64,000 nucleotides of DNA from Thermoplasmatota archaeon (GTDB taxonomy: Archaea; Thermoplasmatota; Penumbrarchaeia; Penumbrarchaeales; Penumbrarchaeaceae): contig JARVGK010000007.1 in NCBI GenBank assembly GCA_029762535.1, positions 44,190 through 108,189 of the forward strand, read 5' to 3'. The notes below the pieces were generated by a model. It did no database searches. It was given only the letters and a program-made list of their open reading frames with translations, and was not told the origin of the DNA. The position numbers were made by a program, and so were the translations under genes. Below, one piece after another: positions 7,275-33,714 of this stretch; the first letter of the stretch is position 1; the number at the start of each line of letters is the position of its first letter.

Positions 7275-8294
7275 GTGAAAGGTTATAGAAAATACATTAC
7301 CGGGGGCATTGCCGTTTTCGCCGTGGCCTTGATGGCCATAGTGGCGGGATGCCTGGAAGGAAGCAGTGGAAAGGAAAACCTGATCCAGACGGGTTCGAGC
7401 ACGGTATTGCCTCTGGCCACGAAGTGGGCTGAGGAATACGATGGGGCCAACATAGCGGTCTCGGGCGGCGGTTCAAGCCATGGTTTGAACGCCCTCCTGA
7501 ACGGCGAGGCCGATCTCGGCGATGCCAGCCGTCTGATGAAGGGGAGCGATTACGAGAAGGTCGGCGGAAACGCCGGTGACGTCAACTCCGACGGGACCGC
7601 CAAGAAGGCCGCCCCTACCGGCGTATGGCCCTACAAATGGGTAGTCGCCTATGACGTTCTCGCTACCGTTGTGAACAATGACAACACATGGGCGACAGAG
7701 CTCACTTTCGATCAGCTCTATCACATATTCACCACGGATAACACAGCGATATACTGGGACGATCCGATCCTCAACCTGACCGGAGCCCCGCACGAGAAGA
7801 TCGAGATATACGCTCCAGATGAGGCCTCGGGAACATACGACTACTTCTTCGAGTCCCTCATCTCCGATTGGGGCAAGGACACCAGGACGGTCAAGACCAG
7901 GCTCGAGGCTGGCGATGGGGTCTATCATCCCAGCGCCGATGACAACGTGATCATGAACGCTATAAAGGCGAACAAGAACGCGATCGGTTTCTTCGGGTTC
8001 GCATACCTCATCGAGAACCCGAACGTCGTGAAGCCCGTCAAGATAGCGGAGACGGATACCTTCGTGGAGCCCTCCTTCGCCACAGTGAGCACCTATCCGA
8101 TGGCCAGGCCTCTGTTCATCTACACGAACGGCATCCCCAAACAGGACAACGATAAGGGAAAGGCGATCTATGAGTACCTGGAGTTCATCCTTTCCGAGGA
8201 AGGCCAGAGAATGGTACCCGAGGTAGGATACGTCAGGCTATCCCTTGTGGACCCCTCTCTCGCAGCGAACCAGCTGGCAGACCTGAAGGCTTGA
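7275..8294 (+). CDS. pstS: Phosphate ABC transporter substrate-binding lipoprotein PstS (copy 1)
   Basis: Lipobox IVAGC; TGSSTV, GGGSSHG, DASR, SGTYDYF and YPMARPLF motifs; first gene of pst operon. Confidence 0.93.
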   Translation: MKGYRKYITGGIAVFAVALMAIVAGCLEGSSGKENLIQTGSSTVLPLATKWAEEYDGANIAVSGGGSSHGLNALLNGEADLGDASRLMKGSDYEKVGGNAGDVNSDGTAKKAAPTGVWPYKWVVAYDVLATVVNNDNTWATELTFDQLYHIFTTDNTAIYWDDPILNLTGAPHEKIEIYAPDEASGTYDYFFESLISDWGKDTRTVKTRLEAGDGVYHPSADDNVIMNAIKANKNAIGFFGFAYLIENPNVVKPVKIAETDTFVEPSFATVSTYPMARPLFIYTNGIPKQDNDKGKAIYEYLEFILSEEGQRMVPEVGYVRLSLVDPSLAANQLADLKA

Positions 8295-8295
8295 A

Positions 8296-10179
8296 GTGGT
8301 GAATATGGAGCCGTCGACGGAAAAGGGCGGGAACCCTTACAGAAAGAGGTTCCGCCCGGGGGAGGACCTCATATCATGGTTCCTCCTGGGGATGGCGAGC
8401 CTGGCGATCATCGTCAGCCTGGCCATAATCTACACCCTCGTCGACGGCTCTTACGGTTTTTTTATAGACGCCCGTGTTGACATCATCGATTTCTTCACGG
8501 GAAAGAACTGGTCCCCGCACGGGGCAACCCCAAGCTTCGGCATGGGGCCGCTGATCCAGGGGACGGTGATGATCGCGGGTGGCGCACTTATCCTGGGAGG
8601 GCCTCTCGGCATCATGGCGGCTTTATATCTTTCAGAGTTCGCCCATAACAGGATCAGGGCCGTGGCGAAACCGTTCCTGGAGATCCTTGCCGGGATCCCC
8701 TCGATCGTTTATGGTTTCTTCGCCCTCCTGGTCATAAGCCAGGTGTTCAGGGATTACTTCGAAGCGGATTATTTCAACGCCGCGTCCGCGATAGTCGTGA
8801 TGGCCGTCATGATCCTGCCCATCGTCGTCAGCGTCTCCGATGACTCGATGAAGGCCGTACCCCGTGAGATGAGGGAAGCGAGCCTGGCAATGGGCGCCAC
8901 GAAATGGGAGACCGCCACGAAGGTGGTCATGCCCGCGGCATCATCGGGCATAATGGCCTCGGTACTCCTCGGACTCGCCAGGGCGATAGGCGAGACCATG
9001 GTCGTGGTCCTCGCGGCAGGAAGCATCGCGAAGTTCTCATGGTCAATATTCCACGAGCACATGACCATGACCGCCTACATCGCCCAGGTGGCAACGGGCG
9101 ACATACCTCCCGGCATCGGGATCCAGGCGGCCTTCGCCGTCGGTCTTGTGCTCTTCGCCATCACTTTCTTGATCAACTGGCTGGCATCCAAGGTCGTGAT
9201 CAGCATCAAGAAAGGCGGGTCCGGGGGCCTGAGGAGAAAAAAACTCGGCCTCCTCAGCAGCGCACTCCATCTACTTCCCAATCTGACCAACGATCTATTG
9301 GATAAGGTAAGATCGGACAGGATGTCGAAGAACATGACGATGCGTTATGTCAAGGAGCGGGTCGGAAAGGTGGTCCTGGGATCCTCTCTCTTGGTCGCGC
9401 TTGTGTTTCTCGTATTCCTGCTCTATTCGATACTGGAGCAGGGGTTGTCAGGTCTTACCCCGCATTTCTTCACGAATTTCCCGAGCTCCGACCCCGCAAA
9501 GGCGGGGATATGGCCCGTTATACAGGGATCGGTTTACCTCGTGCTTCTGACCATGCTCTTCGCGATGCCGGTGGGGATCGGGGCCGCGATATACCTAAAC
9601 GAGTTCGCGAAGGAGAACTGGTTCAATTTGTTCCTGAGGAGGATCATCCAGAACCTCGCGGGGGTCCCGTCGATCGTCTTCGGGCTAGTGGGCCTCACCA
9701 TCTTCGTCAGGTTCTTCAGTTTCGGGCTCAGCCTTCTGTCAGGAGCTCTGACCCTGGCCATAATGGTTCTGCCTATAGTGATCGTGACGTCCGAGGAGGC
9801 GCTCAGGTCAGTTCCCCAGACCTTCAGGGAAGCGGCAAGGGGTTTAGGCGCCACGAAGTGGCAGACTGTCTGGCATCACGTCCTTCCCAATGCGATCCCC
9901 GGCGTGCTCACCGGGAGCATCCTGTCCCTCTCAAGAGCGCTGGGGGAGACCGCACCCATACTCTTTATCGCAAGTTTCTTCTCCAAGGTGGCGCCGAACT
10001 CCATCATGGACGGTTTCTTGGCCCTTCCGATCACGATATTCTACTGGACCAAACATCCCAAGCAGGAGTTCCAGGACCTCGCAGCGACCACGATCATCGT
10101 CCTGTTGTTGATACTCCTTACCATGAACGCGGTCGCCATATTCATCAGACAGAGATCACAATCCAAAAGGAAGTGGTAG
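8296..10179 (+). CDS. pstC: Fused phosphate ABC permease PstC-PstA (copy 1)
   Basis: Two permease halves, LAGIPSIVYG/EASLAMGATKWET/ARAIGET and LAGVPSIVFG/EAARGLGATKWQT/SRALGETAP, in one ORF. Confidence 0.92.
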   Translation: MVNMEPSTEKGGNPYRKRFRPGEDLISWFLLGMASLAIIVSLAIIYTLVDGSYGFFIDARVDIIDFFTGKNWSPHGATPSFGMGPLIQGTVMIAGGALILGGPLGIMAALYLSEFAHNRIRAVAKPFLEILAGIPSIVYGFFALLVISQVFRDYFEADYFNAASAIVVMAVMILPIVVSVSDDSMKAVPREMREASLAMGATKWETATKVVMPAASSGIMASVLLGLARAIGETMVVVLAAGSIAKFSWSIFHEHMTMTAYIAQVATGDIPPGIGIQAAFAVGLVLFAITFLINWLASKVVISIKKGGSGGLRRKKLGLLSSALHLLPNLTNDLLDKVRSDRMSKNMTMRYVKERVGKVVLGSSLLVALVFLVFLLYSILEQGLSGLTPHFFTNFPSSDPAKAGIWPVIQGSVYLVLLTMLFAMPVGIGAAIYLNEFAKENWFNLFLRRIIQNLAGVPSIVFGLVGLTIFVRFFSFGLSLLSGALTLAIMVLPIVIVTSEEALRSVPQTFREAARGLGATKWQTVWHHVLPNAIPGVLTGSILSLSRALGETAPILFIASFFSKVAPNSIMDGFLALPITIFYWTKHPKQEFQDLAATTIIVLLLILLTMNAVAIFIRQRSQSKRKW

Positions 10180-10182
10180 GAC

Positions 10183-11004
10183 TTGTTCGCATTCCTGAAT
10201 AAGAAAAAGAAAGAAGAATGTGTTTGCCCCATACCCGGGAAAGAAGCCAAGGAAGCCTACATCGATATGAAGGGCGTCAATATATTCTACGGGTCCAATC
10301 GCGCGGTCAAGGACGTTTCGATGAGGATCAAACACCGCAAGGTCACGGCATTCATCGGACCCTCAGGGTGCGGAAAGAGCACGCTTTTAAGGGCCTTGAA
10401 CCGCATGAACGATGAGATCGACGGATGCAAGATGACCGGTTCCATATTCATGAACGGAGTGGACATACTCGGAAAGAAGGTGGACCCGGTTTCCCTGAGG
10501 ACCAACGTCGGCATGGTCTTCCAGAAGCCAAACCCGTTCCCCAAATCCATCTTCGACAACGTCGCCTACGGACCGCGGATCCACGGGATCAGGAAGAAGA
10601 GCACTCTCGACTGCATAGTCGAGAAGAGCCTGAGGGACGCCGCCCTCTGGGAAGAGGTAGGGGATAGGCTCGCGGAGTCCGCAATAGGACTATCAGGCGG
10701 CCAGCAGCAGAGGCTGTGCATCGCCAGGGCTCTTGCCGTGAACCCCGAAATGATACTGATGGACGAGCCCTGCTCGGCTTTGGACCCCATCGCGACCTCG
10801 AAGATCGAGGACCTTATTTTCGAGCTGAAGAAGAGCTATACTGTCGTGATAGTGACGCACAACATGCAGCAGGCCGCGAGGGTCAGCGACGACACCGGTT
10901 TCATGTACCTGGGGGAGCTCATAGAGTTCGGACCGACGAAACAGATCTTCCAGAGGCCGAAGCAGAAGCTGACTGAAAATTATATTACGGGAAGGTTCGG
11001 TTAG
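10183..11004 (+). CDS. pstB: Phosphate ABC transporter ATPase PstB (copy 1)
   Basis: [49 protein letters not shown]. Confidence 0.96.
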
Positions 11005-11012
11005 GTGATGTC

Positions 11013-11663
11013 ATGCCAGAAAAACTTGACGATGATATGCAGAAGTTGATGTCGGATATAACCGAGATGGCGAGTCTCTCCAAAGGCATGCTGATCGATT
11101 CCGTCCGAGCGCTCAAGGACCTTGACGGTGATCTCGCCAATGACATCATATCGAGAAAGGACAGGCTCTACGAGTACGATGACCGCATCGAGGAGCGGGC
11201 GTTGAAGATGCTCACGTTATACAGCCCCATGGCCTCGGACCTCAGAAGGATAGCCACCGTTTTCAAGATGATAACGTATCTGACAAGGATAGGCAGATAC
11301 GGATACGACATATCAAAGATAACCCTGCATCTGGTGGGCAAGCCCCACGTGAAGAAACTCATAGATATCCCGCGCATGGCCGAGATCGTGGCGGGGATGA
11401 TCGATGATGTCATAGGCGCATTCCACACGGGCGACCTTGATAGGATCGCGGACCTGGCAGAGAGGGACAATATCGTGGATGAGACGAGGTATTCGATATT
11501 CAGGGAGTGCCTCACATACATGATGGAGGACCCATCGACCATAACCCGATGCACGGATTACATAATGATCGCGAGATACCTTGAGAGATGCGGCGATCAC
11601 GCATGCAAGATCGGTGAGAAGGTTCATTACATGATAACTGGCGAAAGGGTCGAGATCTCATAA
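11013..11663 (+). CDS. phoU: Phosphate signalling/uptake regulator PhoU
   Basis: PMASDLRRI and LERCGDHACKI motifs; follows pstB. Confidence 0.93.
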   Translation: MPEKLDDDMQKLMSDITEMASLSKGMLIDSVRALKDLDGDLANDIISRKDRLYEYDDRIEERALKMLTLYSPMASDLRRIATVFKMITYLTRIGRYGYDISKITLHLVGKPHVKKLIDIPRMAEIVAGMIDDVIGAFHTGDLDRIADLAERDNIVDETRYSIFRECLTYMMEDPSTITRCTDYIMIARYLERCGDHACKIGEKVHYMITGERVEIS

Positions 11664-12080: not shown

Positions 12081-12195
12081 AATATATAAAATATATATCT
12101 TTCCGGGCTTTATATACAAGATATAGGGAATATTAATATCCTCTTCTTTGATTCCCGCGCTTGTAGAACGCGATAAAGCTTTGAAAGGTTGCGGG

Positions 12196-13269: not shown

Positions 13270-13273
13270 GATC

Positions 13274-13696: not shown

Positions 13697-13849
13697 GAGT
13701 ATGGTCTGCGTGATATCGCCTCTTATATGCTGTTTATACGAATCTGGATAACGTTTTTTATCCTTGCCTATGTACTAGATAGACACTATTTAGCCGGATA
13801 TAGTCTATAGATAATATGGCGCGGCATTCTCACAAGTGGTACTTCCGGG

Positions 13850-14668
13850 TCACCAATCGTATGTGGAAGAGGTTGTGGACCTCATCCCGAACTGATCGGC
13901 CACATCGAGCCGTATCGAGTAGGTCATCGGTGACATCGGGAACGTGACCCTGGCCATCCTTCCGTTGAGGGGGAATTCCAGGTCGGGAGTTCCCGGGAGA
14001 CCATCATGGTCATATGAGATCGTCCAGTCCCAGCTCAATATCTCTCCGCCCACCCCCGGATGATCGGAAAGCGAACCGTCGAGGACCGGGACCGATATGT
14101 ACGATGCCGACCCCGCATCCCATTCCGTCTGGGTCCTTACAACGAAGACAGGGGACGGAGGGAGGAAGTTCCTGTTGAACGAGTTCCCGTAGCTGGTGGA
14201 TATCTTGATGTTCAGATAGGACGTGAGCGCTATGTCCTTGTCCCCGCCGAAGAAGTAAGTGTCCGGATATACGATAATCGTCACCTGCTCAGTCGAATCC
14301 AATTTGCCCCAGGAGGCGTAATCCGTCCCGGTCTCGAGGAGAACTCCGTTCTTCATGATATCGAACTTCTCGACGACGTGTTCGTTTATGCTTATCATCC
14401 TGATGTAGGAGGTGCCCTCATGGAAGCTGGCGATGATCAATCCGATCTCGAACCACTCCGTTCCGGCAAGGTTCTCCTGAAGCGATATGGAGGATATGCC
14501 TATCTTCTCATTATCGCTGAGGTCCTGTATCCTCTGGTTCCTCTGGTACGCGTCCTGGCGGTCAGCCACGAAAACGGCGAACGATGTGGCGGCGACGACG
14601 ACGATCAGAACGAGTATCAACGCTCCGACCACCTCGGAGACTCCCGAACCGCCCTTGATCTTCTTCAT
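13850..14668 (-). CDS. Archaeal type IV pilin-like protein (class III signal peptide) with C-terminal PKD-like module
   Basis: MKKIKGGSG|VSEVVGALILVLIVVVAATSFAVFV N-terminus; LDGSLSDHP..SWDW..YSIRLDVAD C-terminus. Confidence 0.85.
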   Translation of the reverse strand: MKKIKGGSGVSEVVGALILVLIVVVAATSFAVFVADRQDAYQRNQRIQDLSDNEKIGISSISLQENLAGTEWFEIGLIIASFHEGTSYIRMISINEHVVEKFDIMKNGVLLETGTDYASWGKLDSTEQVTIIVYPDTYFFGGDKDIALTSYLNIKISTSYGNSFNRNFLPPSPVFVVRTQTEWDAGSASYISVPVLDGSLSDHPGVGGEILSWDWTISYDHDGLPGTPDLEFPLNGRMARVTFPMSPMTYSIRLDVADQFGMRSTTSSTYDW

Positions 14669-14844
14669 CCTCGATGCTATGAGGGACTATCTAGATAAAA
14701 TGCATCAATGTATAGCCGATATTATATGGAGTGGAATATAGGACTATGAAGATACATTACTTCTATATGGGTCAGGTTTAAACGAGACGGGGTTCTACAG
14801 CGTTACCCGGGTAAAAGAGAACCTGGCAGTATGGATGTTTCGAG

Positions 14845-15459: not shown

Positions 15460-15469
15460 GGACGTTCTT

Positions 15470-16984
15470 ATGATACAATCCAAGGGATACGAGAGATTCG
15501 GCCTAACGGGCAACCCTTTCCGGGACCTTGCCTCCGAGACGCTCGAGACCATCGACATCTTCCACGTCAGACAGGAGATGGACGATCATCTGCGAATGAT
15601 AATCGACGAGATCTTCGAGAAGCAGTCCAAGGCGGTCGTGGCCATACTCGGAGCCCTGGGCATGGGCAAGACCCAGAGGCTTCTCCTGATCCAGAGCTGG
15701 GCCAGGGATAAGAAGGCCTACTGCGTGTTCAGGTCCATCAATCCCCAGGCAAAGCTCGTCATAAGCGATGTCATAAAGACCTTGATCGATACGGTCCCCC
15801 TGACATTCTTCGAGAGGAACATCTCCGCGCCCAGATTCTATTCGGACCTGAAGAAGGCATACAGGTCCTCCCGGAAGAAGTTCGACCCGGAACTGATCGG
15901 CAGGGCCATCGCCGGAGCCCTCAACGCCCGTTCCCCTTCGATACTTATACTTAACGACCTTCACAACGTCGATCCAACGGCCGAGCTGCCGGATTTCCTT
16001 CAGGTGCTGTATTCCATAGTCAACAACCTGGACGAGGGCGTCATGATAGCGATAGGGTCCAACTCCGCATATTTCGACGGGATAATGAAGAGGCATCAGT
16101 CCCTCGAGGAGAGGATAAACTACAAGCTGGAGGTGCAGCCCCTCATAGACACGGAGGCCCAGGAGATGGTGGCGAAGAGGCTGACGGCGAAGAGGCTCGT
16201 CGAGGACCTAAACCCCATATACCCCTTCAACAACGATTCCATATCGATATTGAACTCGGAATCACATGGAAATCCCCGGCAGGTCCTCAAGCTCTCGGAC
16301 AGGATCATCGACCAGGCCGCGACCGAGAGGGTCATACAGATAGACGCCCAGTATGCGATGGATATACTCGAGGGATCGAGACAGAAGAGGTCCCTTCCTC
16401 CGGCCCCCCATGAGATCCTCAAGAAGCTGAGGGAGGAGGCCAGGGTCAAGAGGCCGGCCATCCCGTCTCGGACCCCCCCGGGCATCTCAACAGAGTTCGA
16501 GAAGAAGGTCAAGGAATACGAGCATGCCCTGGAGAAGATGGAGAAGGCCCTGGAGAGGAAAGAACCCCTGCCTGAAAAAGAGAAGAGGATGCCCGGGGCA
16601 GCGGTCAAGGTCGATCTCCCGGTCGATGCTCCTCTGGAGGTCGCTCCATCGATGCCCGATCCGATCGGGACGGTGCCCCCGGTCAAGGTCGATCTCCCCG
16701 TCGATACTCCTCTGGAGGTCGCTCCCCCGATGACCGGTCCTACCACGATCGTGCCCAAGCCCTCCCTGGACGAGGAGCTGCCGCTCATCATCAAGAAGAA
16801 GGTGACGATGAGAAAATTGGAGACCGTCACCGAGGACGGCATTCCGGCGCCTCCGAAGAGCATCTTCATAATTGAGGAGAGGGAAATGCCCGGTCCTCCC
16901 AGGAAAGAGAAGGGTTCCAAGGGCGAACCGTCCGAGGATGCCGTTCTCTCCAGGTACAGGTCGGTTCCTCCGACGCGGAGTTAA
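15470..16984 (+). CDS. P-loop AAA-type ATPase with Pro-rich low-complexity C-terminal tail
   Basis: FGLTGNPF N-terminus, Walker A GALGMGKT, Walker B-like LILND, GNPRQV. Confidence 0.8.
   Translation: MIQSKGYERFGLTGNPFRDLASETLETIDIFHVRQEMDDHLRMIIDEIFEKQSKAVVAILGALGMGKTQRLLLIQSWARDKKAYCVFRSINPQAKLVISDVIKTLIDTVPLTFFERNISAPRFYSDLKKAYRSSRKKFDPELIGRAIAGALNARSPSILILNDLHNVDPTAELPDFLQVLYSIVNNLDEGVMIAIGSNSAYFDGIMKRHQSLEERINYKLEVQPLIDTEAQEMVAKRLTAKRLVEDLNPIYPFNNDSISILNSESHGNPRQVLKLSDRIIDQAATERVIQIDAQYAMDILEGSRQKRSLPPAPHEILKKLREEARVKRPAIPSRTPPGISTEFEKKVKEYEHALEKMEKALERKEPLPEKEKRMPGAAVKVDLPVDAPLEVAPSMPDPIGTVPPVKVDLPVDTPLEVAPPMTGPTTIVPKPSLDEELPLIIKKKVTMRKLETVTEDGIPAPPKSIFIIEEREMPGPPRKEKGSKGEPSEDAVLSRYRSVPPTRS
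16602..16740 (+). repeat. Intragenic tandem duplication with 78-bp period (VKVDLPVDxPLEVAPxMxxP)
   Basis: cggtcaaggtcgatctccc..gtcgat.ctcctctggaggtcgctcc occurs at 16602 and 16680. Confidence 0.85.
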
Positions 16985-18840: not shown

Positions 18841-19749
18841 TCAATCCACCTTTGCATAGGATGCCGATATGAACAGGTTCATGGCGATCACGGAGAAGGG
18901 GATCAGGAAATATGTCATGATTATGAGAAGGGTGCTCGCGTCTATCCCGTTGAACGTCGATGCCAGCGTCTCCATGAGGAACGCCGCCACCCCGGCGAAC
19001 AATATTCCCATCAGCACCAGGCTGGTATAGATCTCCATCAGGGTGCCGAGGCCCTCTATGAACTCCTTCTGTATGTCCCTCTTGAGTTTGAGGCTCGCAT
19101 CGGCCTTGTTCCTGAGATACGTGTCCATGTCGCCGCCCTCGTGTATCATGTTCGAGAAGTCCCAGAGCATCTCCCTGAGATGCTGGGAGGGAGTCTCCTT
19201 GGCCGTCTCGCTTATGGCGGTGATTATGTCCTTCCCCTCCACGTCCAGGTGGTATATTATCTTCCTGAACTCCCTGGACATGTACTTCGAGTCCTTTCTC
19301 TGGGAGATCTTCCTCATTATCTGAACCGGGGAGAGGCCGGTGGATGCCAGGATGGAGAGCTCGCTCATGGTGAAGGGCAGCTCCTTGTCTATCTCCGACT
19401 TCTTCTTGGATATCCTCGAGGAGATGATAAGGGGATAGGAGAATATCGTGACGAGAAGGGAGACGGCAAAGAGCGAGGCCGTGAACAAGGGCCAGCCTTC
19501 CACGTTGAACATCACCCTGAAGACGAGTATGGATATGATAAGGACCGCCGCGGCCGAGAACAGCGTGGCGTATAACATCATGGAGAGGTACATCCCCGGG
19601 GACATGTTCACGTCCCCCTTGGACAGCCTGAGCTTGAGCCGGTTCATGTCGTATTTTAGATCCAATGTGCGACCAAGGGACTGATAGGAGAAACGCTTGT
19701 ACCTCTCCAGGAACCCCTCCCAGGCGGAGGGGTCATCCTTTCTTGACAT
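18841..19749 (-). CDS. Type IV filament platform protein (T2SS-F/TadB/ArlJ family)
   Basis: IDKELPF..LASTG, GKDIITAI, TPSQHLRE and GGDMDTYL motifs; overlaps the ATPase gene. Confidence 0.9.
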   Translation of the reverse strand: MSRKDDPSAWEGFLERYKRFSYQSLGRTLDLKYDMNRLKLRLSKGDVNMSPGMYLSMMLYATLFSAAAVLIISILVFRVMFNVEGWPLFTASLFAVSLLVTIFSYPLIISSRISKKKSEIDKELPFTMSELSILASTGLSPVQIMRKISQRKDSKYMSREFRKIIYHLDVEGKDIITAISETAKETPSQHLREMLWDFSNMIHEGGDMDTYLRNKADASLKLKRDIQKEFIEGLGTLMEIYTSLVLMGILFAGVAAFLMETLASTFNGIDASTLLIIMTYFLIPFSVIAMNLFISASYAKVD

Positions 19750-21484
19750 CGATGGCCCCCATCGATTCGAGGTTGACCATGGCCTTCGTGGGGTCCATGT
19801 AGAATTCGTTTATCGCCCTGCTCACGTCCTTGTAATACGTCAGGTTCTTCTGGTCCATCAGCTTGAGGTATTTCTCCTTGCGGTATATCTCGTCCATTAT
19901 GGACTGGAGCGTCTTTCCGGTCGATCTCGCTATGTCCTCTATCAGGAAGCTCCTCCCCGTGAACTTGAACGCATCGTTCGTGGGATCCCACGTGAAGGGG
20001 GCGTTCGTCAGAAGGTTCTTTGAGGATGGCTCGATGTCCAGGACCTCCGTCACGCCCTTGACGCGCCTGACCCTCCTGCCCCTGTACACGACCTGCCCCT
20101 GGAAAACGACGGCGTCGAGCGACATGAACAGGGACCTGGGTATGTCCATCGGGGGGTTCTCCACCCTGTGTATCAGCTCGTCGATGGAGCCGGCGTGTAT
20201 CGTCGCCATCGCGGCGTGCCCGACGGCTATGGCCTGGAACAGGGTGAACGCCTCCTTGCCCCTGACCTCCCCCACTATCACGTATTCCGGTCTCTGTCTC
20301 AGGGCCGCTACCAGCAGGTCGAACATCGATATGCTCCCCGAGGACCCTCCCGAGGCGCTGACCCCGAACCCCCCCCTTGATACGGACTGTATCCAGTTGG
20401 TGTGGTCGATGTGGATCTCGGGGGTGTCCTCTATGGAGACCACCTTGTCCTCCGGCTTCACGAACATGCACAGCGCGTTCATGAGCGTGGTCTTGCCCGA
20501 GGCCGTGCCTCCGGAGATGAGAAGCGACCTCTTATACTCGATTATCGTCCAGAAGTAGGCGAGCTGGAAGGCGGAGATCGATCCGAACCTCATGAGGTCC
20601 ACAGGTGAGATGGGATCGTGGGAGAACTTCCTTATCGTGAAGGTGGAACCTTTTCTCGTGACCTCGGAGCCCAGCGTCAGGTTGATCCTCGAGCCGTCGG
20701 TGAGGGTGGCGTCGAGTATGGGCTGATAGACGGAGACGTGCTTTCCGGCGACCTGGGCGAGTTTTACGACATAGCGGTTCAGCTCCACATCGGAGGGGAA
20801 TTGTATGTTGGTCTTCATTGACCCCATCCCCCTGTGGAATATGTAGATGGGGATGTTGGGTCCGTTGCAGGATATGTCCTCTATGAACGGGTCCTTGATG
20901 AGGGCGTCCGCCCTCCCCCAGCCGATGAGGTCCCTCTGGAGGTAGTAGAAGAGGACGCGCCTCCTCTTCTCGTCAAGGTCTATGTTGTAGAGGTCCAGAA
21001 CTGACTGGTAGAGGCCGAGTATGTAGTTCCTGAGCTGGTCGGAGCGTCCGTACTCGGAACCCTCGGAGATCGGGAGCTCGTCCTGGTCCATTGCGACCTC
21101 CATCTTCGACTTTATGCTCTGGATGAGGTCCTCCTCGCCCTCTTTGAGCCTGGGCTCCTTTATGAGGTACTTCATCTCGCCCTCTTTTCTGTCATATGTG
21201 ATGTTGACGAAGGAATAAGGAGGGTTCACCGGATAGGTCAGGTTGACCCCGAGCTTCTCCTTGTCCAGTTCCCGCCTCATGAAGTTGAGCTCGCGCTGGA
21301 TGATTATCTTCTCGGAGATCTCGCCTTTCTTCCTCAGCTGGGATTCGATCTCGCGGGCGCGCTTTCGAAGCTTTTCCCGGAACTCGGGATCCTCCATCCT
21401 GTCGTCCGTGAGCTTCTCCTTCTTCATGAAGGGCAGGTCCGCCGATGCGGTCCATTTTACAATTCTATCCATTAATCCTGTCAA
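19733..21484 (-). CDS. Type II/IV secretion (PilB/ArlI/VirB11-family) assembly ATPase
   Basis: DPFIEDISCNG, TIRKF, Walker A GGTASGKT, Asp box EDTPE, ALRQRPEYVIVGEVRG, His box GHAAMATIH. Confidence 0.95.
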   Translation of the reverse strand: MTGLMDRIVKWTASADLPFMKKEKLTDDRMEDPEFREKLRKRAREIESQLRKKGEISEKIIIQRELNFMRRELDKEKLGVNLTYPVNPPYSFVNITYDRKEGEMKYLIKEPRLKEGEEDLIQSIKSKMEVAMDQDELPISEGSEYGRSDQLRNYILGLYQSVLDLYNIDLDEKRRRVLFYYLQRDLIGWGRADALIKDPFIEDISCNGPNIPIYIFHRGMGSMKTNIQFPSDVELNRYVVKLAQVAGKHVSVYQPILDATLTDGSRINLTLGSEVTRKGSTFTIRKFSHDPISPVDLMRFGSISAFQLAYFWTIIEYKRSLLISGGTASGKTTLMNALCMFVKPEDKVVSIEDTPEIHIDHTNWIQSVSRGGFGVSASGGSSGSISMFDLLVAALRQRPEYVIVGEVRGKEAFTLFQAIAVGHAAMATIHAGSIDELIHRVENPPMDIPRSLFMSLDAVVFQGQVVYRGRRVRRVKGVTEVLDIEPSSKNLLTNAPFTWDPTNDAFKFTGRSFLIEDIARSTGKTLQSIMDEIYRKEKYLKLMDQKNLTYYKDVSRAINEFYMDPTKAMVNLESMGAIDVKKG

Positions 21485-21685
21485 GGCGCCTTGGCTACTC
21501 TTATTACGATATTAATTACTGTTTCACGTAAAGGACATACAATATATAGGGATACGGAGGGGATCTTTCCCCAATGGAGAGGAAGTTGGGATCGGTAAGA
21601 CAAGACAACTATTTGGAGAACGCCTATATGCCCTTCTTTGGGTCAGGGAAATGGGTCCCGAAGGGGATCCAAGTAGGTGAAAGAA

Positions 21686-22825
21686 ATGAAGCACATGAAA
21701 AACGACAAGGCAGGGGTCTCCCCGGTCATTGCCACGTTGATATTGGTGCTCATCGCCGTAGCGGCGGGAGTTGCCTTTTTCGCATGGCAGTCTGGCTGGC
21801 AGGAAGACGCCACAGGTAACATAAGCAATGCGAACGCACAGACGGAGATAACCATCGGTGGATCCTCCACCGTCTATCCTTTCACGGCAGTTGCGGCTGA
21901 GGCTTTCATGGAAGCCAACCCCACCGTGAAGATCTCCTACCAGTCCGGTGGATCCGGTGCAGGAACCGCTGGCGTCAGGGAGGGTGTCATCGATATCGGT
22001 GCCGCCTCCTCCGACAGGACCCAGGCCAAGCACTTCCCCGACCACCCCGACGTGGTCATCACCGCCGTCGGCTATGACGCCGTCGGTGTCGTCGTCGATG
22101 ATGGCAACACCAGGATAAACGATATCAACGCAACCGTCGCAATCGAGATCTTCACAATGGTCATCACCGACTGGAACCAGGTCCCTGTTGCATCTGGCGC
22201 GTCCGGAACTGGCACAACTGGTGCAGCTGGTTCTGAGACCACTGTAACAGTCTCCACCGGAACCCTTGCAATTGGCAGGTACAGGATGTGGTCTGCAACA
22301 ACTCTCGTGAGGACTGTCGATGTTATAGCTGCAAATACGCTCCCCTCAGATCTCTTCGGAGCATCCGCATCCATCTCCTGGCAGGTTATCACCTCCGCTA
22401 CCTCCGCTCCTATCGAAGTCTACGACAGGGCTGACAAGTCCGGAACCGAGGAGTGCTTCAACGAGAAGCTCCTCGGCCTCGATGGATCCTCCATCCCCGA
22501 AGGTGATCAGACCGGTGTCGCAGGCAATCAGGAAATGCTCGACCTCTTCGAGGCTGGCGCACCCAACGCTATCGGATTCATCTCCACCGGTGTCGCCACC
22601 TCCGATGTGAAGCTCGTCACCCTCGACGGCGTCGCCGCCACCGAGGAGAACATCGCTGACGGGTCCTACACCGCCCAGAGGCCCCTGAACTATATGTACA
22701 TCCCCTCCCAGCTCGGCGGAAAGCTCGCCATCGTTGAGGCGTACATAGACTTCTGCATGTCCCCCAAGAACAATATTGACTTCGCCCACTCCGTGGACTA
22801 CCTCTCCTGGTATGACCTCGAGTAA
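21686..22825 (+). CDS. pstS: Type IV pilin N-terminus fused to a PstS phosphate-binding domain (PstS copy 2)
   Basis: MKHMKNDKAG|VSPVIATLILVLIAVAAGVAFFAW class III signal; PstS motifs GGSSTV, SGGSGAG, IGAASS, YDAVGVVV, RADKSGT, IGF, QRPL; SD aggtga before ATG 21686. Confidence 0.9.
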   Translation: MKHMKNDKAGVSPVIATLILVLIAVAAGVAFFAWQSGWQEDATGNISNANAQTEITIGGSSTVYPFTAVAAEAFMEANPTVKISYQSGGSGAGTAGVREGVIDIGAASSDRTQAKHFPDHPDVVITAVGYDAVGVVVDDGNTRINDINATVAIEIFTMVITDWNQVPVASGASGTGTTGAAGSETTVTVSTGTLAIGRYRMWSATTLVRTVDVIAANTLPSDLFGASASISWQVITSATSAPIEVYDRADKSGTEECFNEKLLGLDGSSIPEGDQTGVAGNQEMLDLFEAGAPNAIGFISTGVATSDVKLVTLDGVAATEENIADGSYTAQRPLNYMYIPSQLGGKLAIVEAYIDFCMSPKNNIDFAHSVDYLSWYDLE

Positions 22826-22858: not shown

Positions 22859-22891
22859 GGAGGGTTTTTTATTAAACCCTCCTTTTTTTTT
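22859..22891 (+). terminator. Hairpin plus poly-T terminator/attenuator after pilin-PstS
   Basis: GGAGGGTTT (22859-67) pairs with AAACCCTCC (22874-82), followed by T9. Confidence 0.75.
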
Positions 22892-22938: not shown

Positions 22939-25900
22939 ATGGATCTCAAGGTTCCGAATTGGGCTGTTGCGATAGTTCAGGCATTGATATTCGTCATAAT
23001 CTTCTTCCCCGCCCTCTTCGCATTGGACTCATTCTATCTACAATTGCCTTTCTTCATCCTGGAATTGATCATGATCTTCATCGTTCTCACCAAGAAGGAT
23101 ATGAGATTCTTTTACATGTTCTGGCAGTTCCAGATATATCTCCTCATTCTATTCAAGGTGATATTCGATTACAATACAACGTTCAAGACGATCGATTCTG
23201 AACCATTGGCGATCATTGTCATCTCGTTCTTCATAACATTCCTGGAAGCATTGATCCTTGTGGGATTCATCCTTCGGGAAAAGGGCGTTAAGCCCATACT
23301 TGTGACACTGTCCTCAACGACCAGCATCGTTGTGCTGCTCATTATCATTTTTATTTTCAAGGAAGGTCTCCCGGCTTTTTCGGAGAACGATCCTATCGAG
23401 TTCTTGACAGGAAATAGCTGGACGGCAGATTATGAACCATCCTTGGAAGATACGATCCTGATCGAGGTCGTTGTTTCGGATTACGATCACGAAATATCGA
23501 TACCGGATGATAGGCTGTATCTCGCAATAGATGAGAACCATACTGTTCCCATCGATCTGAAGAACACCGGATCGAAGGATGATACCTATCTGTTAAGTTT
23601 GGAATATCCCTCCGGTCTATCGGTTCAGGATCATCAAAGAACTGTTTTTTTAAGATCTGGATCGGATCATACTTTCGATATCGATCTTTCTTCAAATATT
23701 TCCATGGACTTGGATCTGAGGATCATTGTGGGATCCATGAATGGAAGTATATCAAAGGAAAGGACAATAGACCTGGCTTTCGGAGACGTTGGGATCGATG
23801 CGGGGCCGGAGTACTTCCATTATCTGAATTCGGAGATGAATGTCCCTCGCACTCCTTTTTGGGTGAAGAATACCGGGAACGTAGTTGAGACCTATTCCGT
23901 GACATTGACCTTCGATGAAGAGATCATCAAACCTTTTGTGACCGGGACCGACAATGATTGGGACCACGATAACGATACAGTTGACATCACCCTGGACCCC
24001 ATGGAAACCGTTTCCTTCAACGTGATAACAAGGATCCTGAACCTTCGCCCGTTCAGGTCTACAATAACGATCGATGTCGTGTCAAGGACGGATCCCGGCA
24101 TATATGACAGCATAGTGATCGACTTCGAGTATCGGGACAGGAGCTATTTCGATCACGATCAAACTTCTTTCGTCGTATCCAAAGGCTCCGATGTCATCAT
24201 CCCGGTCTTCGTCAATATCACAAACCCGGCAAATTCCAATTTCTTCATACTGGTTGAAGATGGGAACGGGCCCCTGGAGACCTTCAGCCTATCGTATGAT
24301 TCCGTAAATATCGATGAAATCGATGAAAAGGTTCCGATCAACCTATCATCGGGTATGAAGACCCTTCTATTGACCGTCAGGTCCAATTCGAATATCGGAG
24401 GATCGGAGAATATCACCCTTAATATCACATTGGAGAGGGAAGGGACCTATCCTTCCTTCGGCATCGGCCCGATGATCGTCGGCACGTTCATCACCGTCCT
24501 TGTCGCATTGATCATAGCCGTTCCATTAGGACTGGGTACGGCGATCTTTTTGGCGGAATACTGCCCCAAGAAACTGCACATCTTCCTGCGTCCTATGTTC
24601 GAACTTTTGGCCGGGATCCCTTCGATAGTTTACGGCCTCTGGGGATATTTCACATTGGTACCCTTCTTCAGGGACAACATATACGGCCCGGTGAGTGGAT
24701 CTTTGGGATTGGCGATCCCCTTCCTAAGGATCACACCGGAGACCCCCAGTTCCGAGGGGACCGTGATCGTTGCCGGTTTCGTCCTATCAATTATGATACT
24801 TCCGATCATCATAACCCTTTCCGAAGATTCTATACGAGCCGTTGCCAGGAGCCTGAAGGAGGGATCGCTCTCATTGGCCACGACTAAATGGCAGACGATA
24901 AGAGGCGTGGTCCTGAAAAGAGCGAAAAGCGGGATCATATCCTCTATCATTTTGGCCATGGGAAGGGCCATAGGCGAGACCATGGCTGTTATAATGATAC
25001 TCAGGATAGCGACGAATTATCCGAGTTCGCTCTTCGAACGGGCAGGGTCAATGACCGCGGTCATCGCCGGGACCTTCGGATGGGCATTCGATCTCGATCT
25101 TTCAAGACATGCCGTCTTTGGGGTTGCGATCGTGCTGTTCATGATCGTCTTCGTTCTTAACCTGATAGTCTTCAGGATACAGAACGGTGAGAAGAAGGGA
25201 AGTATCGCTTTCCGGTGGGTAAATCGTATCGTCGAGAAGGCCATCAATTATTGTTTCAGGAAAAAAGAAGACATGAGGACCCTTCCGACCAAGGGACCGG
25301 TGTTCGATAAAAAGAATATGACATCACTTGGCTTTTTACGGTTCCAGGAATACCTGTTCAGGTCATTGTTCGCGCTATCGGCAATAGTGATCTTCATATT
25401 CCTCCTGCTTGTCCTAAGCAATGTTTTCATTACGGGAATATCATCGATGAAATTATACTATCTTTTCGAAAAGGAAGTCGCGGGAGGATTGGAGGACGGT
25501 GGATTCCTCAATGCCATTCTCGGTTCCCTTCAGCTGACGTTCTTGGCATTATTGATCTCCTCCATATTCTCGTTGGGAGCGGCCATATACATTACACAGT
25601 TCAGCAAACAGAACAATATCCTAACGAGGACCATACTCTTCTCTTCCGATACCCTTGCTGCGACGCCTTCGATCGTATTCGGGGCATTTGGGTTCATTTT
25701 CTTCTCCATCGAGCTCAAACTAGGCCTGTCGATGTTGTCGGCAGCGCTTACTCTGTCAATAATGGTGATCCCCCTCCTTTTAAGAAGTTCGATAGAAGCT
25801 CTCAACAGCATACCCAGAGAGCTTGGGGATGGTTCCCTGGCATTGGGAGCGAGTAAATGGCAGACGGTGTGGAACGTGATATTGCCGCCGGCATTGGGGG

Positions 25901-26787: not shown

Positions 26788-28014
26788 ATGTTGATAGAGT
26801 TCAAGCTCAGGAACTTCAGGTCCATCAGGGACGAGATGACCTTCAGCCTGCTGGCATCGAGCGACAGGACGCATTCCCAGAACTTAATCGTTCACGATGC
26901 ATTGAAAAAGGACCTTCTGCTTAAGAGCGCCGTGATCTACGGCGCCAACGCTTCGGGTAAGACCAACGTTCTTCTGGGTTTGAACACCCTAAGAGGACTT
27001 GTCGTCCATTCTCACAGCAACCAGATAGGTCAGGAGCTTCCTTACGAGCCGTTCAGATTGGACGAAAGGGCCGGGTCCGACGATACCTCCTTCCGGATCG
27101 CATACATTCATAAGGACATCAAGTACATCTACGAGCTCTCCTACAACAGGGAAAAGGTTGTTGATGAGGTTCTCTACAGCTATCCGCAGGGAAGAAGGTC
27201 GTTGCTCTTTTCAAGGACCGGAACGGATAATTACAGGTTCACCAAAGATGAAAAGGAGCAGACCCTGATCAAAGAAAGGACACCCCCGAACGTCCTCTAC
27301 CTTTCAAGGGCCGCACAGTTCAACTACCAACCTGCAATAGATGCGTTCGAATGGTTCAAGGAAAAGCTGAAATTTATAGGACCTTCCGACCATATCAATC
27401 TGATGAAGTTCACAAGCAAAATGCTGGAGGACCCCAAGAGCAAGGACATGATCCTTCAGGGGCTCAGGACCGCGGACCTCGGGATAGACGATGTCATCCT
27501 CAACAATGTCACTATCAGGGCCGAGGAGCTGCCCGGGGACCTCCCTTCGGAGCTAAAGGATAGGTTGGTAGGCTCCGAACGTACTAGGATATTGACATAT
27601 CATAAGGGTGTTCCGTTTGACCTTTCAGATGATGAGTCCGAAGGCACCAAGAGAATGTTCCATCTGATCGGACCCGTAATAAAAGCTCTCAACGATTCAC
27701 AGGTCCTCCTGATAGACGAGCTCGATACAAAGCTCCATCACCTTATGAACATCTTTTTGATAGAGCTGTTCCAGAATACCGACAACCCTTCATCCCAGCT
27801 CGTGTTCACAACACACAACACAACCCTTCTCGAATCCGAACTCTTCAGAAGGGACCAGATATGGTTCACCGAAAGACGGCCTGATGACGATTCGACCGAC
27901 CTCTACTCTCTCCTTGAGTTCCACCCCAGAAACGATGCGAACATAAAGATAGGATACCTGTCGGGAAGGTACGGTGCCATACCTCTCATCAAGAGCGAAA
28001 GGTTGTGCCCATGA
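26788..28014 (+). CDS. ABC-like AAA_21 ATPase (RloA/AbiLi type)
   Basis: NFRSI, GANASGKT, ESEGTK, LLIDE, FTTH, LFRRDQIWF, YLSGRYGAIP. Confidence 0.9.
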   Translation: MLIEFKLRNFRSIRDEMTFSLLASSDRTHSQNLIVHDALKKDLLLKSAVIYGANASGKTNVLLGLNTLRGLVVHSHSNQIGQELPYEPFRLDERAGSDDTSFRIAYIHKDIKYIYELSYNREKVVDEVLYSYPQGRRSLLFSRTGTDNYRFTKDEKEQTLIKERTPPNVLYLSRAAQFNYQPAIDAFEWFKEKLKFIGPSDHINLMKFTSKMLEDPKSKDMILQGLRTADLGIDDVILNNVTIRAEELPGDLPSELKDRLVGSERTRILTYHKGVPFDLSDDESEGTKRMFHLIGPVIKALNDSQVLLIDELDTKLHHLMNIFLIELFQNTDNPSSQLVFTTHNTTLLESELFRRDQIWFTERRPDDDSTDLYSLLEFHPRNDANIKIGYLSGRYGAIPLIKSERLCP

Positions 28015-30915: not shown

Positions 30916-31863
30916 TCACTTCATGAAGGAAGCGCGGTATGCGATCTCGGCTATCTCGTCGATGTAGGTTATTATCCTGTTGAACGAATCGGCCACTTCC
31001 GCCCAAGCGATCGCGTTCTCGGCCCCGTCGTGTACCCGGTCTACCCATCGAAGCTCCCTGCAGGAATGGATCACGCTCTCGGACACCTCGGCATCCTTCT
31101 CCAGAAACGCCTTGACGGACCGGTCCAGTATCTCCTGCAGCTGGAAGAACGCCGTATCGGGCGGGATCGGACCCTGCCCCGACGCGACCTTGGCCATATT
31201 CAATGCGTGGTCCGCGATCCTCTCGAGATTGTTGCTCACGGTCACGTAATTGCTGCCGTTGTCCCTGTATATTCCAAGCGTCTCCGAGTTCGATGAATCG
31301 TATAGAACAAGGTTGTAATGCCTCTTTATGAGCCAGTTGTAAAAGTTTACGCTGTGGTCCATATCCTCCATGTCGGGGATGCGGCCCTTGTCCCCCTCCA
31401 TGCTCTCCACCGAAAGCCGGAGCATGCTCCGCGTCATCTTGTGCATCCTCTCGAGCGCCCTGACGGTGTCGTACCTGGAATAATCCAGAAGGTCCCTGGC
31501 GACGAGGCGGTCGGCCTCCTCCTCGACGATCTCGAACCCGGTGATCCTGGACAGCACCGTTTTGATGTCGGACCTCAGCCTGTTCGGGTCCCTGTCCCCG
31601 AACCTGAAGTTTATGGCGGTGAACCCGGATATGTAAAGGCCGATTATCTTTCGGTAGAGGGTGTCGATATCGTCATCGACGACCATGTCATATTCCCTGG
31701 GATTGCGCGGCCTTCCGGGGATGTTGAGCACCATGGTCCCGTCCCCCCTCAACGAGAGCTTCATGCTCTCCCCCTTGGACAGGCCGCTCCTGACAACCCA
31801 ATCCTTCGGAAGGGATATCGTGAAGGTCGAGTGCCCTGTCTTCTGGATCTTTCTCGTATCCAT
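30916..31863 (-). CDS. AbrB-domain + PhoU-domain phosphate uptake regulator (paralog B)
   Basis: MDTRKIQKTGHSTFTISLPKDWV; LYISGF; G.EIVEE; LERIADHA; start ATG 31863. Confidence 0.88.
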   Translation of the reverse strand: MDTRKIQKTGHSTFTISLPKDWVVRSGLSKGESMKLSLRGDGTMVLNIPGRPRNPREYDMVVDDDIDTLYRKIIGLYISGFTAINFRFGDRDPNRLRSDIKTVLSRITGFEIVEEEADRLVARDLLDYSRYDTVRALERMHKMTRSMLRLSVESMEGDKGRIPDMEDMDHSVNFYNWLIKRHYNLVLYDSSNSETLGIYRDNGSNYVTVSNNLERIADHALNMAKVASGQGPIPPDTAFFQLQEILDRSVKAFLEKDAEVSESVIHSCRELRWVDRVHDGAENAIAWAEVADSFNRIITYIDEIAEIAYRASFMK

Positions 31864-31927: not shown

Positions 31928-32959
31928 CTATGTATTATGCGGGGCCGCGAATTCGCGCGAGAAGAGCTGATTGATGGATATCTCGCATATGTCCTGCATG
32001 TAAGATACGATCCTGTCCATCGAATCAAGGACGAAGGCGCAAGCGAGTGATGCCTGGGTCCTGTCGGCAGAAGCGAGAAGGGGGTCCCTTATCGCGCGGA
32101 TGTTCCTCTCGAGATCGGCGCATTTATTTACAAGGGAATCGGACATGGCCAGATCGCCCCTGTTGAACGCCTCCATGGCATTGTCCAGGATGCGCACCAT
32201 GGCCGCGTTGATCCGGTTCATCCCTGATAGGTCCATGCCTTCCCCCACCGCGTCCCAGTATTTACCGATCCTCAGGACATGCCGGCTTATCCTCTCCAGA
32301 CACCTCACAAGAAGAAGGTATCCCAGGGCCCCGTGGACCTTCATCTCCTCCTCGGTCTCGTCCCTGGATATCCTGGTGTAGTTCTTCATGATGAGGAGAT
32401 GGAACCTCTGTATCTCGGCATATCTCTCCTCGAGCTCTCCGACGTTCGGAGCGTCCCCTCCTTTGCGGTCCGGGATGTACTTCATCATGCCCCTGACGAT
32501 GAGATGGACCCTTCTCACCGACTGTTCGAAGGAGAATCTGCCCTTGACGGTGAGGTCCCTCACGATAACATGGTCCGAATCCTCCTCGATTATATCCAGA
32601 CCGGTGAAGCTGGATAATATGGACCTGATCGAGTCACGGGACACTAAATCGTTCTCCTCCATATCGAGCCTTATGGAATCATATCCCGCCAGATAGGCCG
32701 CGGTGAAGGCCCGCAGGACGTCCTCCGGATCCTTCCCGCGCATGTCGATCCTGTAAGGAGGGGTCCTGTCGACCGGGACAGAGATATCCAGGAGGGGCTT
32801 GAACAGTATCGTTCGGTCGGATACGGGAATTATGTTCATGTTGTCGCCGTTCTTGAGCCCCAATCTCTCGACCCATTTCTTAGGGAGAGTAATGAGGAAC
32901 GTGGAGTTGCCCGAGCACTGTATCCTTCTCATCTCGGATAATACCTCATCCATACGCAT
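31928..32959 (-). CDS. AbrB-domain + PhoU-domain phosphate uptake regulator (paralog A)
   Basis: RRIQCSGNSTFLITLPKKWV; AYLAGYD; LERISRH; start ATG 32959 coupled (TGATG) to the pstB stop. Confidence 0.88.
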   Translation of the reverse strand: MRMDEVLSEMRRIQCSGNSTFLITLPKKWVERLGLKNGDNMNIIPVSDRTILFKPLLDISVPVDRTPPYRIDMRGKDPEDVLRAFTAAYLAGYDSIRLDMEENDLVSRDSIRSILSSFTGLDIIEEDSDHVIVRDLTVKGRFSFEQSVRRVHLIVRGMMKYIPDRKGGDAPNVGELEERYAEIQRFHLLIMKNYTRISRDETEEEMKVHGALGYLLLVRCLERISRHVLRIGKYWDAVGEGMDLSGMNRINAAMVRILDNAMEAFNRGDLAMSDSLVNKCADLERNIRAIRDPLLASADRTQASLACAFVLDSMDRIVSYMQDICEISINQLFSREFAAPHNT

Positions 32960-33714
32960 CACCCGAACTTCCCCGATATGTAGTTCCTGGTGTTCTCCGA
33001 GCGCGGGTTCTTGAAGACCTGCGCGGTCCTGCCGTACTCTATCAACTTTCCCAGGTGCATATACGCGACGTGATCCGAGACGCGGGCTGCCTGCTCCATG
33101 TTGTGGGTCACTATCGCCACGCAGTACTCTTTGGAGAGCTCCCTGATGAGCTTCTCTATCTTCGATGTTGAAATAGGGTCCAGAGCCGAGCAGGGCTCGT
33201 CCATGAGCAGGATCTCCGGGTCCATGGCAAGGGCCCTGGCGATGCACAGCCTCTGCTGCTGCCCGCCAGATAGCTCCGTGGCGTCCTCGTCGAGCCTGTC
33301 GCCCAGCTCCTCATCGAGGGCGGACCTCTCCAGGGAACTCTTGACGATCGCATCGAGTATGCTCCTCTTCCTGATACCTGCCATCCTGGGTCCATATGCT
33401 ATGTTGTCATACACCGAGAATGGAAAGGGGTTTGGCTTCTGGAACACCATTCCCACCCTTCTCCTCAGGCTGACCAGGTCCGATCCCTTCGAATAGATGT
33501 CCTCGCCGTCAAGGATGATGGAGCCCTTGACCCTGCACCCTTCGATGTGGTCGTTCATCCTGTTCATGCATCTTATGAGCGTGGATTTCCCGCATCCGGA
33601 GGGGCCTATGATCGCGGTGACCTTTCTATCAAGAACAGGGAGATCGACATCGTACAGAGCCTGCTTCTTTCCATACCATAGAGAGAGGCCTCTGACCGCC
33701 ACCTTGCTGCTCAT
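32959..33714 (-). CDS. pstB: Phosphate ABC transporter ATPase PstB (copy 2)
   Basis: [40 protein letters not shown]. Confidence 0.95.

Follow-up and report, generated by a model that had tools for sequence, protein, structure and literature searches.

Why does an archaeal phosphate-binding protein begin like a pilin, and is it carried on a filament? The question is raised by a 64,000-nucleotide stretch of an uncultured Thermoplasmatota archaeon from sediment (NCBI GenBank assembly GCA_029762535.1, contig JARVGK010000007.1, forward-strand positions 44,190 to 108,189). This whole stretch is called the window here, and positions are counted from its first letter. Its gene pstS2 (21686-22825) encodes a PstS-family protein, PstS2, with a class III (prepilin-type) signal peptide. 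On one side of pstS2 lie the genes of a type IV filament (T4F) machine and on the other side the gene of an unusually large phosphate permease. The best reading of this locus is a putative phosphate-specific module resembling the bindosome of Sulfolobus, for which we infer display of the binding protein on a filament.

The N-terminus and fold of PstS2

The initial annotation of this DNA had read KNDKAG and the residues behind it as an archaeal pilin/archaellin cleavage site and hydrophobic domain, and our analysis agrees. The 379-aa frame of pstS2 is free of stops and frameshifts, and a Shine-Dalgarno-like box (GGTGA) lies 6 nt 5′ of its ATG. The leader is short and charged with Gly at its end, and a 24-residue hydrophobic stretch (residues 11-34, VSPVIATLILVLIAVAAGVAFFAW), beginning VSPVIATL, follows straight after KAG. 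We found that TIGR02537, the NCBIfam model of the archaellin/type IV pilin N-terminal domain (cut-off 20 bits), matches residues 10-34 at 22.5 bits in the whole protein and at 28.0 bits when residues 1-60 are scored. A Sec/signal peptidase I h-region is a poor fit because the hydrophobic stretch is too long and no A-x-A site follows it. The genome has, in addition, a gene for a prepilin peptidase of the A24 family (an open reading frame on contig 14; PF01478, 28.6 bits with a cut-off of 26.5), which has a weak Arc_PepC_II match (24 bits) and reaches just 35 bits with the FlaK model. The observation of a PstS protein with a pilin-type N-terminus is confirmed.

Behind the pilin-like helix, PstS2 has the fold of a phosphate-binding protein. 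PF12849 (PBP_like_2) matches with E 2e-24 and 87.2 bits (cut-off 27). The AlphaFold2 (AF2) model of PstS2, made with the family alignment as input, has a predicted local distance difference test (pLDDT) score of 84 and a predicted template modelling (pTM) score of 0.71; it consists of a helix (residues 13-44), a low-confidence linker (about 45-52) and a two-lobed binding-protein fold (53-379). Foldseek against the PDB ranks PstS or phosphate-binding proteins at all of places 1-41, with 4gd5_A at the top (E 7e-21, target TM-score 0.89). In the sequence alignment, the beta-rich insertion of PstS2 falls between residues 146 and 149 of 4gd5; AF2 gives it strands at 173-234 (pLDDT 76-91), and it is missing or different in other family members.

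The binding motifs that had been reported to follow the pilin N-terminus are indeed present (GSST at 59-62, GGSGAG at 88-93, ASS at 107-109 and R248 with S252-G253-T254), and they lie in columns that are invariant across 25 aligned members. The invariant positions in these ligand loops are G59, S60, G89, G93, G105, S108, R248, G253 and T254, and the loops line up with those of phosphate-bound 4gd5 in the sequence alignment. It is likely, judging by these loops, that PstS2 binds phosphate.

The pilin-like part is conserved as well. In the same 25 members, S12, P13, A16, L18 and L20 of the helix are invariant, and W34, W38 and Q39, which form a W-x3-W-Q motif just past the hydrophobic stretch, are conserved in at least 90%. 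The pilin-PstS architecture recurs in about 36 clusters retrieved by a word-indexed search, with members in assemblies of JGI, ENA, Logan and NCBI; JGI labels several of these entries 'flagellin-like protein'. When a profile was run against 1.84 billion cluster representatives (50% identity), 546 matched at E ≤ 1e-30. Among the best 150 of the 546, a strict [VIAL]SP..A.L motif is found close to the N-terminus in 114, and about eight others are variants or truncated; hence, the architecture is not due to chance. In the 113 representatives scored for the residue at -1 before the predicted cut, we found Ala in 94, Gly in 19 and no other residue. A search for related loci with the PstS2 protein alone returned bacterial PstS only.

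Linkage to a filament machine and an enlarged permease

We examined 14 loci with a pilin-type pstS, consisting of five metagenome contigs (PstS identity 27-66%) and nine loci of Thermoplasmatota species-representative genomes; PstS identity across all 14 is 26-66%. A T2SSE ATPase gene, both T2SSF platform genes, a KaiC-like gene and an AAA gene lie within 9 kb of pstS in all 14 loci, and a homologue of the 272-aa pilin of the window is present in 12. In comparison, 25 conventional pstS loci drawn from that phylum sample, some of them in the same genomes, have no filament-module gene; these control loci carry pstSCAB-phoU.

The linkage also holds in reverse. In 401 genomes, a sample of the phylum Thermoplasmatota, orthologues of the window ATPase occur in 12 (57-64% identity), with everything else at 49% or less. 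A pilin-type pstS adjoins the ATPase gene in ten of these 12 carriers, and in the other two the contig stops 130-370 bases from the 5′ end of the ATPase gene, where pstS would lie. In a tree, 15 module ATPases form one clade with a Shimodaira-Hasegawa-like approximate likelihood ratio support (SH-aLRT) of 99.9, apart from 29 paralogues of the same six genomes. Judging by gene linkage, pstS2, the enlarged permease and the filament machine are inherited as one unit. A dedicated adjacent machine, with an ATPase clade found beside pilin-type pstS only, is much stronger support for display than the signal peptide alone.

The machine of the window comprises an assembly ATPase divergent from pstS2, a split platform, a KaiC/ArlH-like ATPase, an AAA-type NTPase and a candidate structural pilin (Table 1); the genome encodes four other T2SSE ATPases. 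Weak matches to the Pfam models PilB3_C and PilB3_N are found on the module ATPases, and the KaiC/ArlH-like ATPase reaches 43 bits with the ArlH model NF052589, far under its cut-off. An archaellum was considered and dropped, since the ATPase lies below the cut-off of the FlaI/ArlI model and the locus has no archaellin-type or class III gene besides those of the 272-aa pilin and PstS2, which have the only class III-type N-termini in the window.

The gene that follows pstS2, pstCA2, encodes a giant fused PstC-PstA permease. Both of its halves are above equivalog cut-offs (TIGR02138 PstC, 418 bits versus 196; TIGR00974 PstA, 375 bits versus 193). Relative to the 627-aa PstCA1 of the conventional system in the window, PstCA2 has about 110 more residues at its N-terminus (1-110), with three added membrane helices, and a long insertion between the conserved W-x-P and SFG motifs of PstC. 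AF2 folds this insertion into three immunoglobulin (Ig)-like beta-sandwiches (residues 169-281, 286-398 and 410-500; pLDDT about 80-93). Foldseek with the insertion returned generic tandem Ig/ASH folds only, with no functional lead, and a Pfam scan found no family for the insertion or for the extra N-terminal helices. The P2 loop of E. coli MalF is also an Ig-like extracytoplasmic domain in the outer loop of a permease, and it contacts the binding protein. PstCA2 differs from MalF in having three domains rather than one, in another loop and in another family, and its Ig tower may, hypothetically, contact PstS2.

Giant PstCA permeases (964-1126 aa) are encoded directly 3′ of the pilin-type pstS in 11 of the 14 loci. 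Measured from the start of pstS, the PstC core lies 2244-4733 nt away in these 11 module loci and 788-1275 nt away in 20 controls. Hence, the enlarged permease is specific to the module.

Two loci depart from the common layout. One is L070 (G013:C61), the sole further carrier in the family to which the window belongs; here about 1.9 kb extra lies between the pilin-type pstS and the giant pstCA (4620-6510), and the PstC core is 4733 nt away versus about 2770 nt elsewhere. The other locus (L027, ENA contig_132937, 12924-16882) has the machine and no giant PstCA after pstS; it represents a subfamily of longer, Cys-rich pilin-type PstS proteins (460-600 aa), and several PBP_like_2 genes lie downstream, one of them encoding 604 aa.

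The window encodes two complete Pst systems, the second interleaved with the filament machine. PstS1 of the first system starts MKGYRKYITGGIAVFAVALMAIVAGC and has the lipobox IVAGC, as had been noted, and it is 25% identical to PstS2. With TIGR00972 (cut-off 343 bits), PstB1 scores 409 bits and PstB2 385 bits. The idea that the second system is without its own ATPase subunit was dropped when pstB2 was found at 32959-33714; it sits 6.8 kb downstream, beyond an inserted AAA_21/RloB gene pair. A pstB gene also lies near the module in L028, L030 and L025 and in five GTDB loci (L071, L073, L074, L076 and, by position, others). A conventional pstS is additionally present in at least eight of the ten genomes that have a pilin-type pstS beside the module ATPase.

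The initial annotation had proposed two delivery modes for the same solute, one membrane-tethered and one filament-borne. The proposal stands in that the anchoring signals differ (a lipobox on PstS1, a class III signal on PstS2) and each protein has a bona fide permease. The term filament-borne had been drawn from the signal peptide alone, which does not establish it because a membrane anchor, cleaved or uncleaved, fits equally. That the solute is the same would follow from the conserved ligand loops, in which one position is changed.

Display, anchoring or adhesion

Sulfolobus binding proteins with pilin-type signals were recognised some twenty years ago, and functionally the module most closely resembles the Sulfolobus bindosome. 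In Saccharolobus (Sulfolobus) solfataricus, GlcS, AraS and TreS have class III signal peptides and the system includes BasEF and BasABC (available text of PMC3047682 and PMC13705601). Both systems have an ABC (ATP-binding cassette) binding protein with a prepilin-type signal, together with a T4F-type ATPase, a platform and pilin-like proteins that are proposed or shown to be needed for display. The substrates are sugars there and, from the PstS fold, phosphate here; the hosts are Sulfolobales there and Thermoplasmatota here; and the three-Ig extracytoplasmic tower on the permease is a feature of the module.

The module proteins belong to the same superfamily as the Bas proteins but are not their orthologues (NF053672 BasE, 193 bits versus 1000; NF053673 BasF, 40 bits versus 1300). 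The module ATPase scores higher with the FlaI/ArlI model (410 bits) than with the BasE model, and the machine is more of the ArlI/PilB3 type, its platform being split and its partner ArlH/KaiC-like. Beside basEF lie the genes of three small pilin-like proteins (BasABC), whereas the module has one other class III-type protein, the 272-aa pilin. Binding protein, permease and machine share one locus here, whereas the Sulfolobus binding-protein genes lie with their transporters, away from basEF (available text of PMC13705601).

That last source, an October 2026 survey in PLoS Genetics, reports 4397 class III binding proteins and proposes that bindosomes are widespread. In its available text, class III binding-protein genes usually lie with transporters and not at filament loci, any link to a specific filament locus is said to need validation, and, according to the authors, no binding protein outside the Sulfolobales has so far been assigned to any one filament machine (PMC13705601). 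PstS2 would belong to the class described there, T4F machines functionalised with substrate-binding proteins for scavenging, and to this class the module brings a fixed link and a dedicated ATPase clade. Neither 'phosphate' nor PstS occurs in the main text of the survey, and 'phosphate' does not occur in its preprint. We found no paper that describes a locus of pilin-type pstS and filament machine, and PstS is not mentioned in Makarova 2016 (PMC4858521).

Makarova 2016 does describe euryarchaeal clade 2 ('system 2') pili loci with two tadC-like platform genes and a KaiC-family ATPase. The module is like these pili (e.g. Haloferax PilB3-PilC3) in its two platform genes, its KaiC-family ATPase and its weak PilB3_C and PilB3_N matches, a likeness by description and not by phylogeny. 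In contrast to the module, clade 2 pili are adhesive and have small pilins, and their descriptions in PMC4858521 and in the available text of PMC13705601 include neither binding-protein cargo nor transporter genes.

We propose that PstS2, the giant PstCA2 and PstB2 form a second, specialised phosphate ABC importer with two AbrB-PhoU regulators, and that this importer is genetically fused to a dedicated T4F machine made of the ATPase, the split platform, the ArlH/KaiC-like ATPase, the AAA protein and the 272-aa pilin. The A24 peptidase would cut PstS2 after Gly10, and the machine would pull the hydrophobic helix out of the membrane. PstS2 would then be assembled, with or on the 272-aa pilin or alone, into a short, bindosome-like surface pseudopilus or pilus. 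The PstS head, with the low-confidence linker as a flexible tether, would catch phosphate beyond the plane of the membrane and pass it to PstCA2; the tower of three Ig domains in loop 1 of its PstC half may give extra reach or a docking surface that PstCA1 lacks. The lipoprotein PstS1 system would be the ordinary importer at membrane level. On the whole of this evidence, PstS2 is probably a processed substrate of the adjacent filament machine.

A more far-reaching form of this proposal is possible, and we hold it tentatively. It is a phosphate-harvesting filament, in which PstS heads would be polymerised or tip-mounted on the 272-aa pilin by the ArlH/ArlI/ArlJ-like motor, the Ig tower would be a hand-over station, and assembly, disassembly or movement of the filament would bring the loaded protein to the permease. 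If true, this would be the first such nutrient-uptake organelle with a fixed genetic link of filament motor, cargo and transporter.

Several points weigh against display. Most module loci belong to one family (f21); hence, the 14 loci are not independent. Gene linkage is functional coupling and is not proof that PstS2 is a substrate of the machine. The sole Pfam match to the N-terminus of PstS2, Pilin_N (PF07790), is at 15.7 bits below its cut-off of 25.2. The PstS model TIGR02136 reaches 144.8 bits versus a cut-off of 206.6 and matches in two stretches, because the 72-aa insertion splits the match, and one ligand position is altered, the Arg of the ASR loop in 4gd5 being Ser109 in PstS2. A head of 330 aa is large for a major pilin. 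The Sulfolobus binding proteins need the Bas machine, yet no long filament of them has been observed (available text of PMC3047682). Cleavage of PstS2, its assembly into a filament and its binding of phosphate are all predictions from sequence.

The alternative that survives best, which we consider rather unlikely, is that the class III-like N-terminus, cut or uncut, merely tethers PstS2, and that the machine builds a separate pilus of the 272-aa pilin (e.g. for adhesion to phosphate-bearing particles) that is just co-regulated with the Pho regulon. The locus does own a conventional-looking pilin, above the Pilin_N cut-off and present in most loci, and adjacency by itself speaks for coupling and not for a substrate relationship. 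Anchoring by an N-terminal transmembrane segment is known for archaeal binding proteins, e.g. in T. tenax (PMC3189178), and the AF2 model, which places the PstS head on a probably flexible linker and does not pack it on the helix, would suit an anchor. However, the Ala or Gly before the cut, the [VI]SP start and the helix with its five invariant positions and W-x3-W-Q motif are conserved well past what an anchor needs. In every case with sequence on the relevant side, the module ATPase clade adjoins a pilin-type pstS, and the machine accompanies each pilin-type pstS whose flanks are assembled. A mere tether leaves this strict reciprocal linkage unexplained, and the module-specific Ig tower of PstC as well.

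We regard as improbable a role outside transport, in which PstS2 would be a minor pilin at the filament tip for adhesion or phosphate sensing and PstCA2 would act mainly in signalling. Large bacterial pilin-like proteins, such as CofB and TcpB, are usually tip-located minor pilins, which counts for this explanation, as do the two AbrB-PhoU regulators that go with the module. Pseudomonas aeruginosa has a precedent, with PstS on filamentous surface appendages under phosphate limitation and a phenotype in adherence and virulence (PMC2242829, PMC3949141). That PstS is bacterial and has an ordinary signal peptide with no pilin N-terminus, so its route of display is not homologous. The complete importer argues for transport, with PstC, PstA and PstB2 all above their equivalog cut-offs, and so does the position of the permease gene directly after pstS2, normal for a transport binding protein and kept in 11 of the 14 loci. 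A miscalled start or an assembly error joining a pilin N-terminus to a normal PstS, conceivable in a metagenome-assembled genome of 102 contigs, has a negligible probability and appears effectively refuted by family-wide conservation, with the same architecture in independent JGI, ENA, Logan and NCBI assemblies and in the 114 cluster representatives, and with an intact frame behind a Shine-Dalgarno-like box.

Display on a filament by the adjacent machine is the reading we prefer. The module ties a binding protein for an essential nutrient to one filament machine, with the ATPase clade, the pilin-type PstS and the enlarged permease travelling together. The module is relevant to the competition for scarce phosphate among archaea of sediments and soils, and the three Ig-like domains in the PstC loop may reveal the way in which cargo passes from a filament-mounted binding protein to a transporter.

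Features and neighbouring genes of the window

Table 1. Positions in the window of the pst genes, the filament-machine genes and the sequence features discussed (fractions refer to the 14 pilin-type pstS loci)
Feature	Position	Strand	Basis
Conventional pst1 operon: lipobox PstS1 (7275-8294), 627-aa PstCA1, PstB1, PhoU	7275..11663	+	family hidden Markov models, sequence
272-aa pilin-like protein (MKKIKGGSG↓VSEVVGALILVL...), candidate structural pilin	13850..14668	-	PF07790 Pilin_N 27 bits (cut-off 25.2); 12/14 loci
KaiC/ArlH-like ATPase, 204 aa	14845..15459	+	PF06745 32.6 bits (cut-off 26.6); 14/14 loci
AAA-type NTPase, 504 aa, conserved module member	15470..16984	+	weak AAA_22 match; 14/14 loci
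Platform protein, second half (T2SSF-like), 467 aa	17437..18840	-	PF00482 E 2e-11; 14/14 loci
Platform protein, first half (T2SSF/ArlJ/TadC-like), 302 aa	18841..19749	-	PF00482 E 4e-13; 14/14 loci
Type IV filament assembly ATPase (ArlI/PilB3-like), divergent from pstS2	19733..21484	-	PF00437 E 3e-32; NF058587 FlaI 410 bits (cut-off 550)
pstS2, PstS-family phosphate-binding protein with class III (prepilin-type) signal peptide, 379 aa	21686..22825	+	PF12849, TIGR02537, AF2, Foldseek
PstS2 leader peptide, residues 1-10 (MKHMKNDKAG), predicted prepilin-peptidase cut after Gly10	21686..21715	+	sequence
PstS2 pilin-like alpha-1 helix, residues 11-44, including family motif W34-x3-W38-Q39	21716..21817	+	AF2 helix 13-44; conservation
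PstS2 beta-rich insertion, about 72 aa, residues 167-238, site variable between lineages	22184..22399	+	gap relative to 4gd5, AF2
Terminator-like hairpin (9 bp) followed by a T-run, between pstS2 and pstCA2	22859..22882	+	pattern match only
pstCA2, giant fused PstC-PstA permease, 1081 aa	22939..26184	+	TIGR02138, TIGR00974
PstC insertion, about 345 aa, residues 160-505, first extracytoplasmic loop, three tandem Ig-like beta-sandwich domains	23416..24453	+	alignment with PstCA1, AF2
AbrB-PhoU regulator B, about 315 aa from ATG at 31863	30916..31863	-	PhoU 51 bits, MazE_antitoxin 27 bits
AbrB (MazE-fold)-PhoU regulator A, about 343 aa from ATG at 32959	31928..32959	-	PhoU and MazE_antitoxin domains
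pstB2, second phosphate ABC ATPase	32959..33714	-	TIGR00972 385 bits (cut-off 343)

The start of regulator A overlaps the stop codon of pstB2, so that the two genes are translationally coupled, and the AbrB-PhoU gene type of regulator A also occurs in L025, L027 and L028. The 9-mer AATATATAG occurs four times in the window, at 7191, 21541, 33781(-) and 52234(-), versus 0.19 expected from shuffling. Three of the copies lie in promoter regions, those of pstS1, of the ATPase/pstS2 intergenic region and of pstB2-phoU, and a longer word, TATATTCTATATAT, is common to the upstream regions of pstS1 and pstB2. The 9-mer is a candidate Pho operator or a common TATA/BRE variant, and at the level of pattern its sharing hints at joint Pho control of both systems.

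Two hairpins flank pstS2. The one 3′ of the gene, with its T-run, would fit a binding protein expressed above its permease, as a pattern-level hint. A small GC-rich hairpin in the 5′-untranslated region (GGGTCCC-GAAG-GGGATCC, 21655-21672) lies about 10 nt before the Shine-Dalgarno-like box. This hairpin, present upstream of pstS in L025, L026 and L070 too, is kept in the four closest loci, across which we found no compensatory changes; we claim no function for it.

The gene pair between pstCA2 and pstB2-phoU (26788-28634) encodes an AbiEii/OLD-like AAA_21 ATPase (408 aa) and a RloB-like protein (209 aa). It resembles a defence-type element inserted in the phosphate island, and at the same position L025 has four small unrelated genes.

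Other phosphorus-related genes lie around the pst systems, namely those of a calcineurin-like phosphoesterase, a TPM-domain phosphatase-like protein and a CYTH (triphosphate tunnel) protein (12148-13269, 36883-37656 and 45140-45706). Together with the two pst systems they suggest a putative phosphate-stress island. Directly upstream of the pst1 operon lies the gene of an 858-aa STAND NTPase with HTH, NB-ARC and TPR repeats (4584-7160). A further gene (38290-42411) encodes a secreted-type C25 (gingipain-like) peptidase of 1373 aa with several bacterial Ig-like domains, and C25 peptidases of this kind are typical of protein-degrading sediment archaea.

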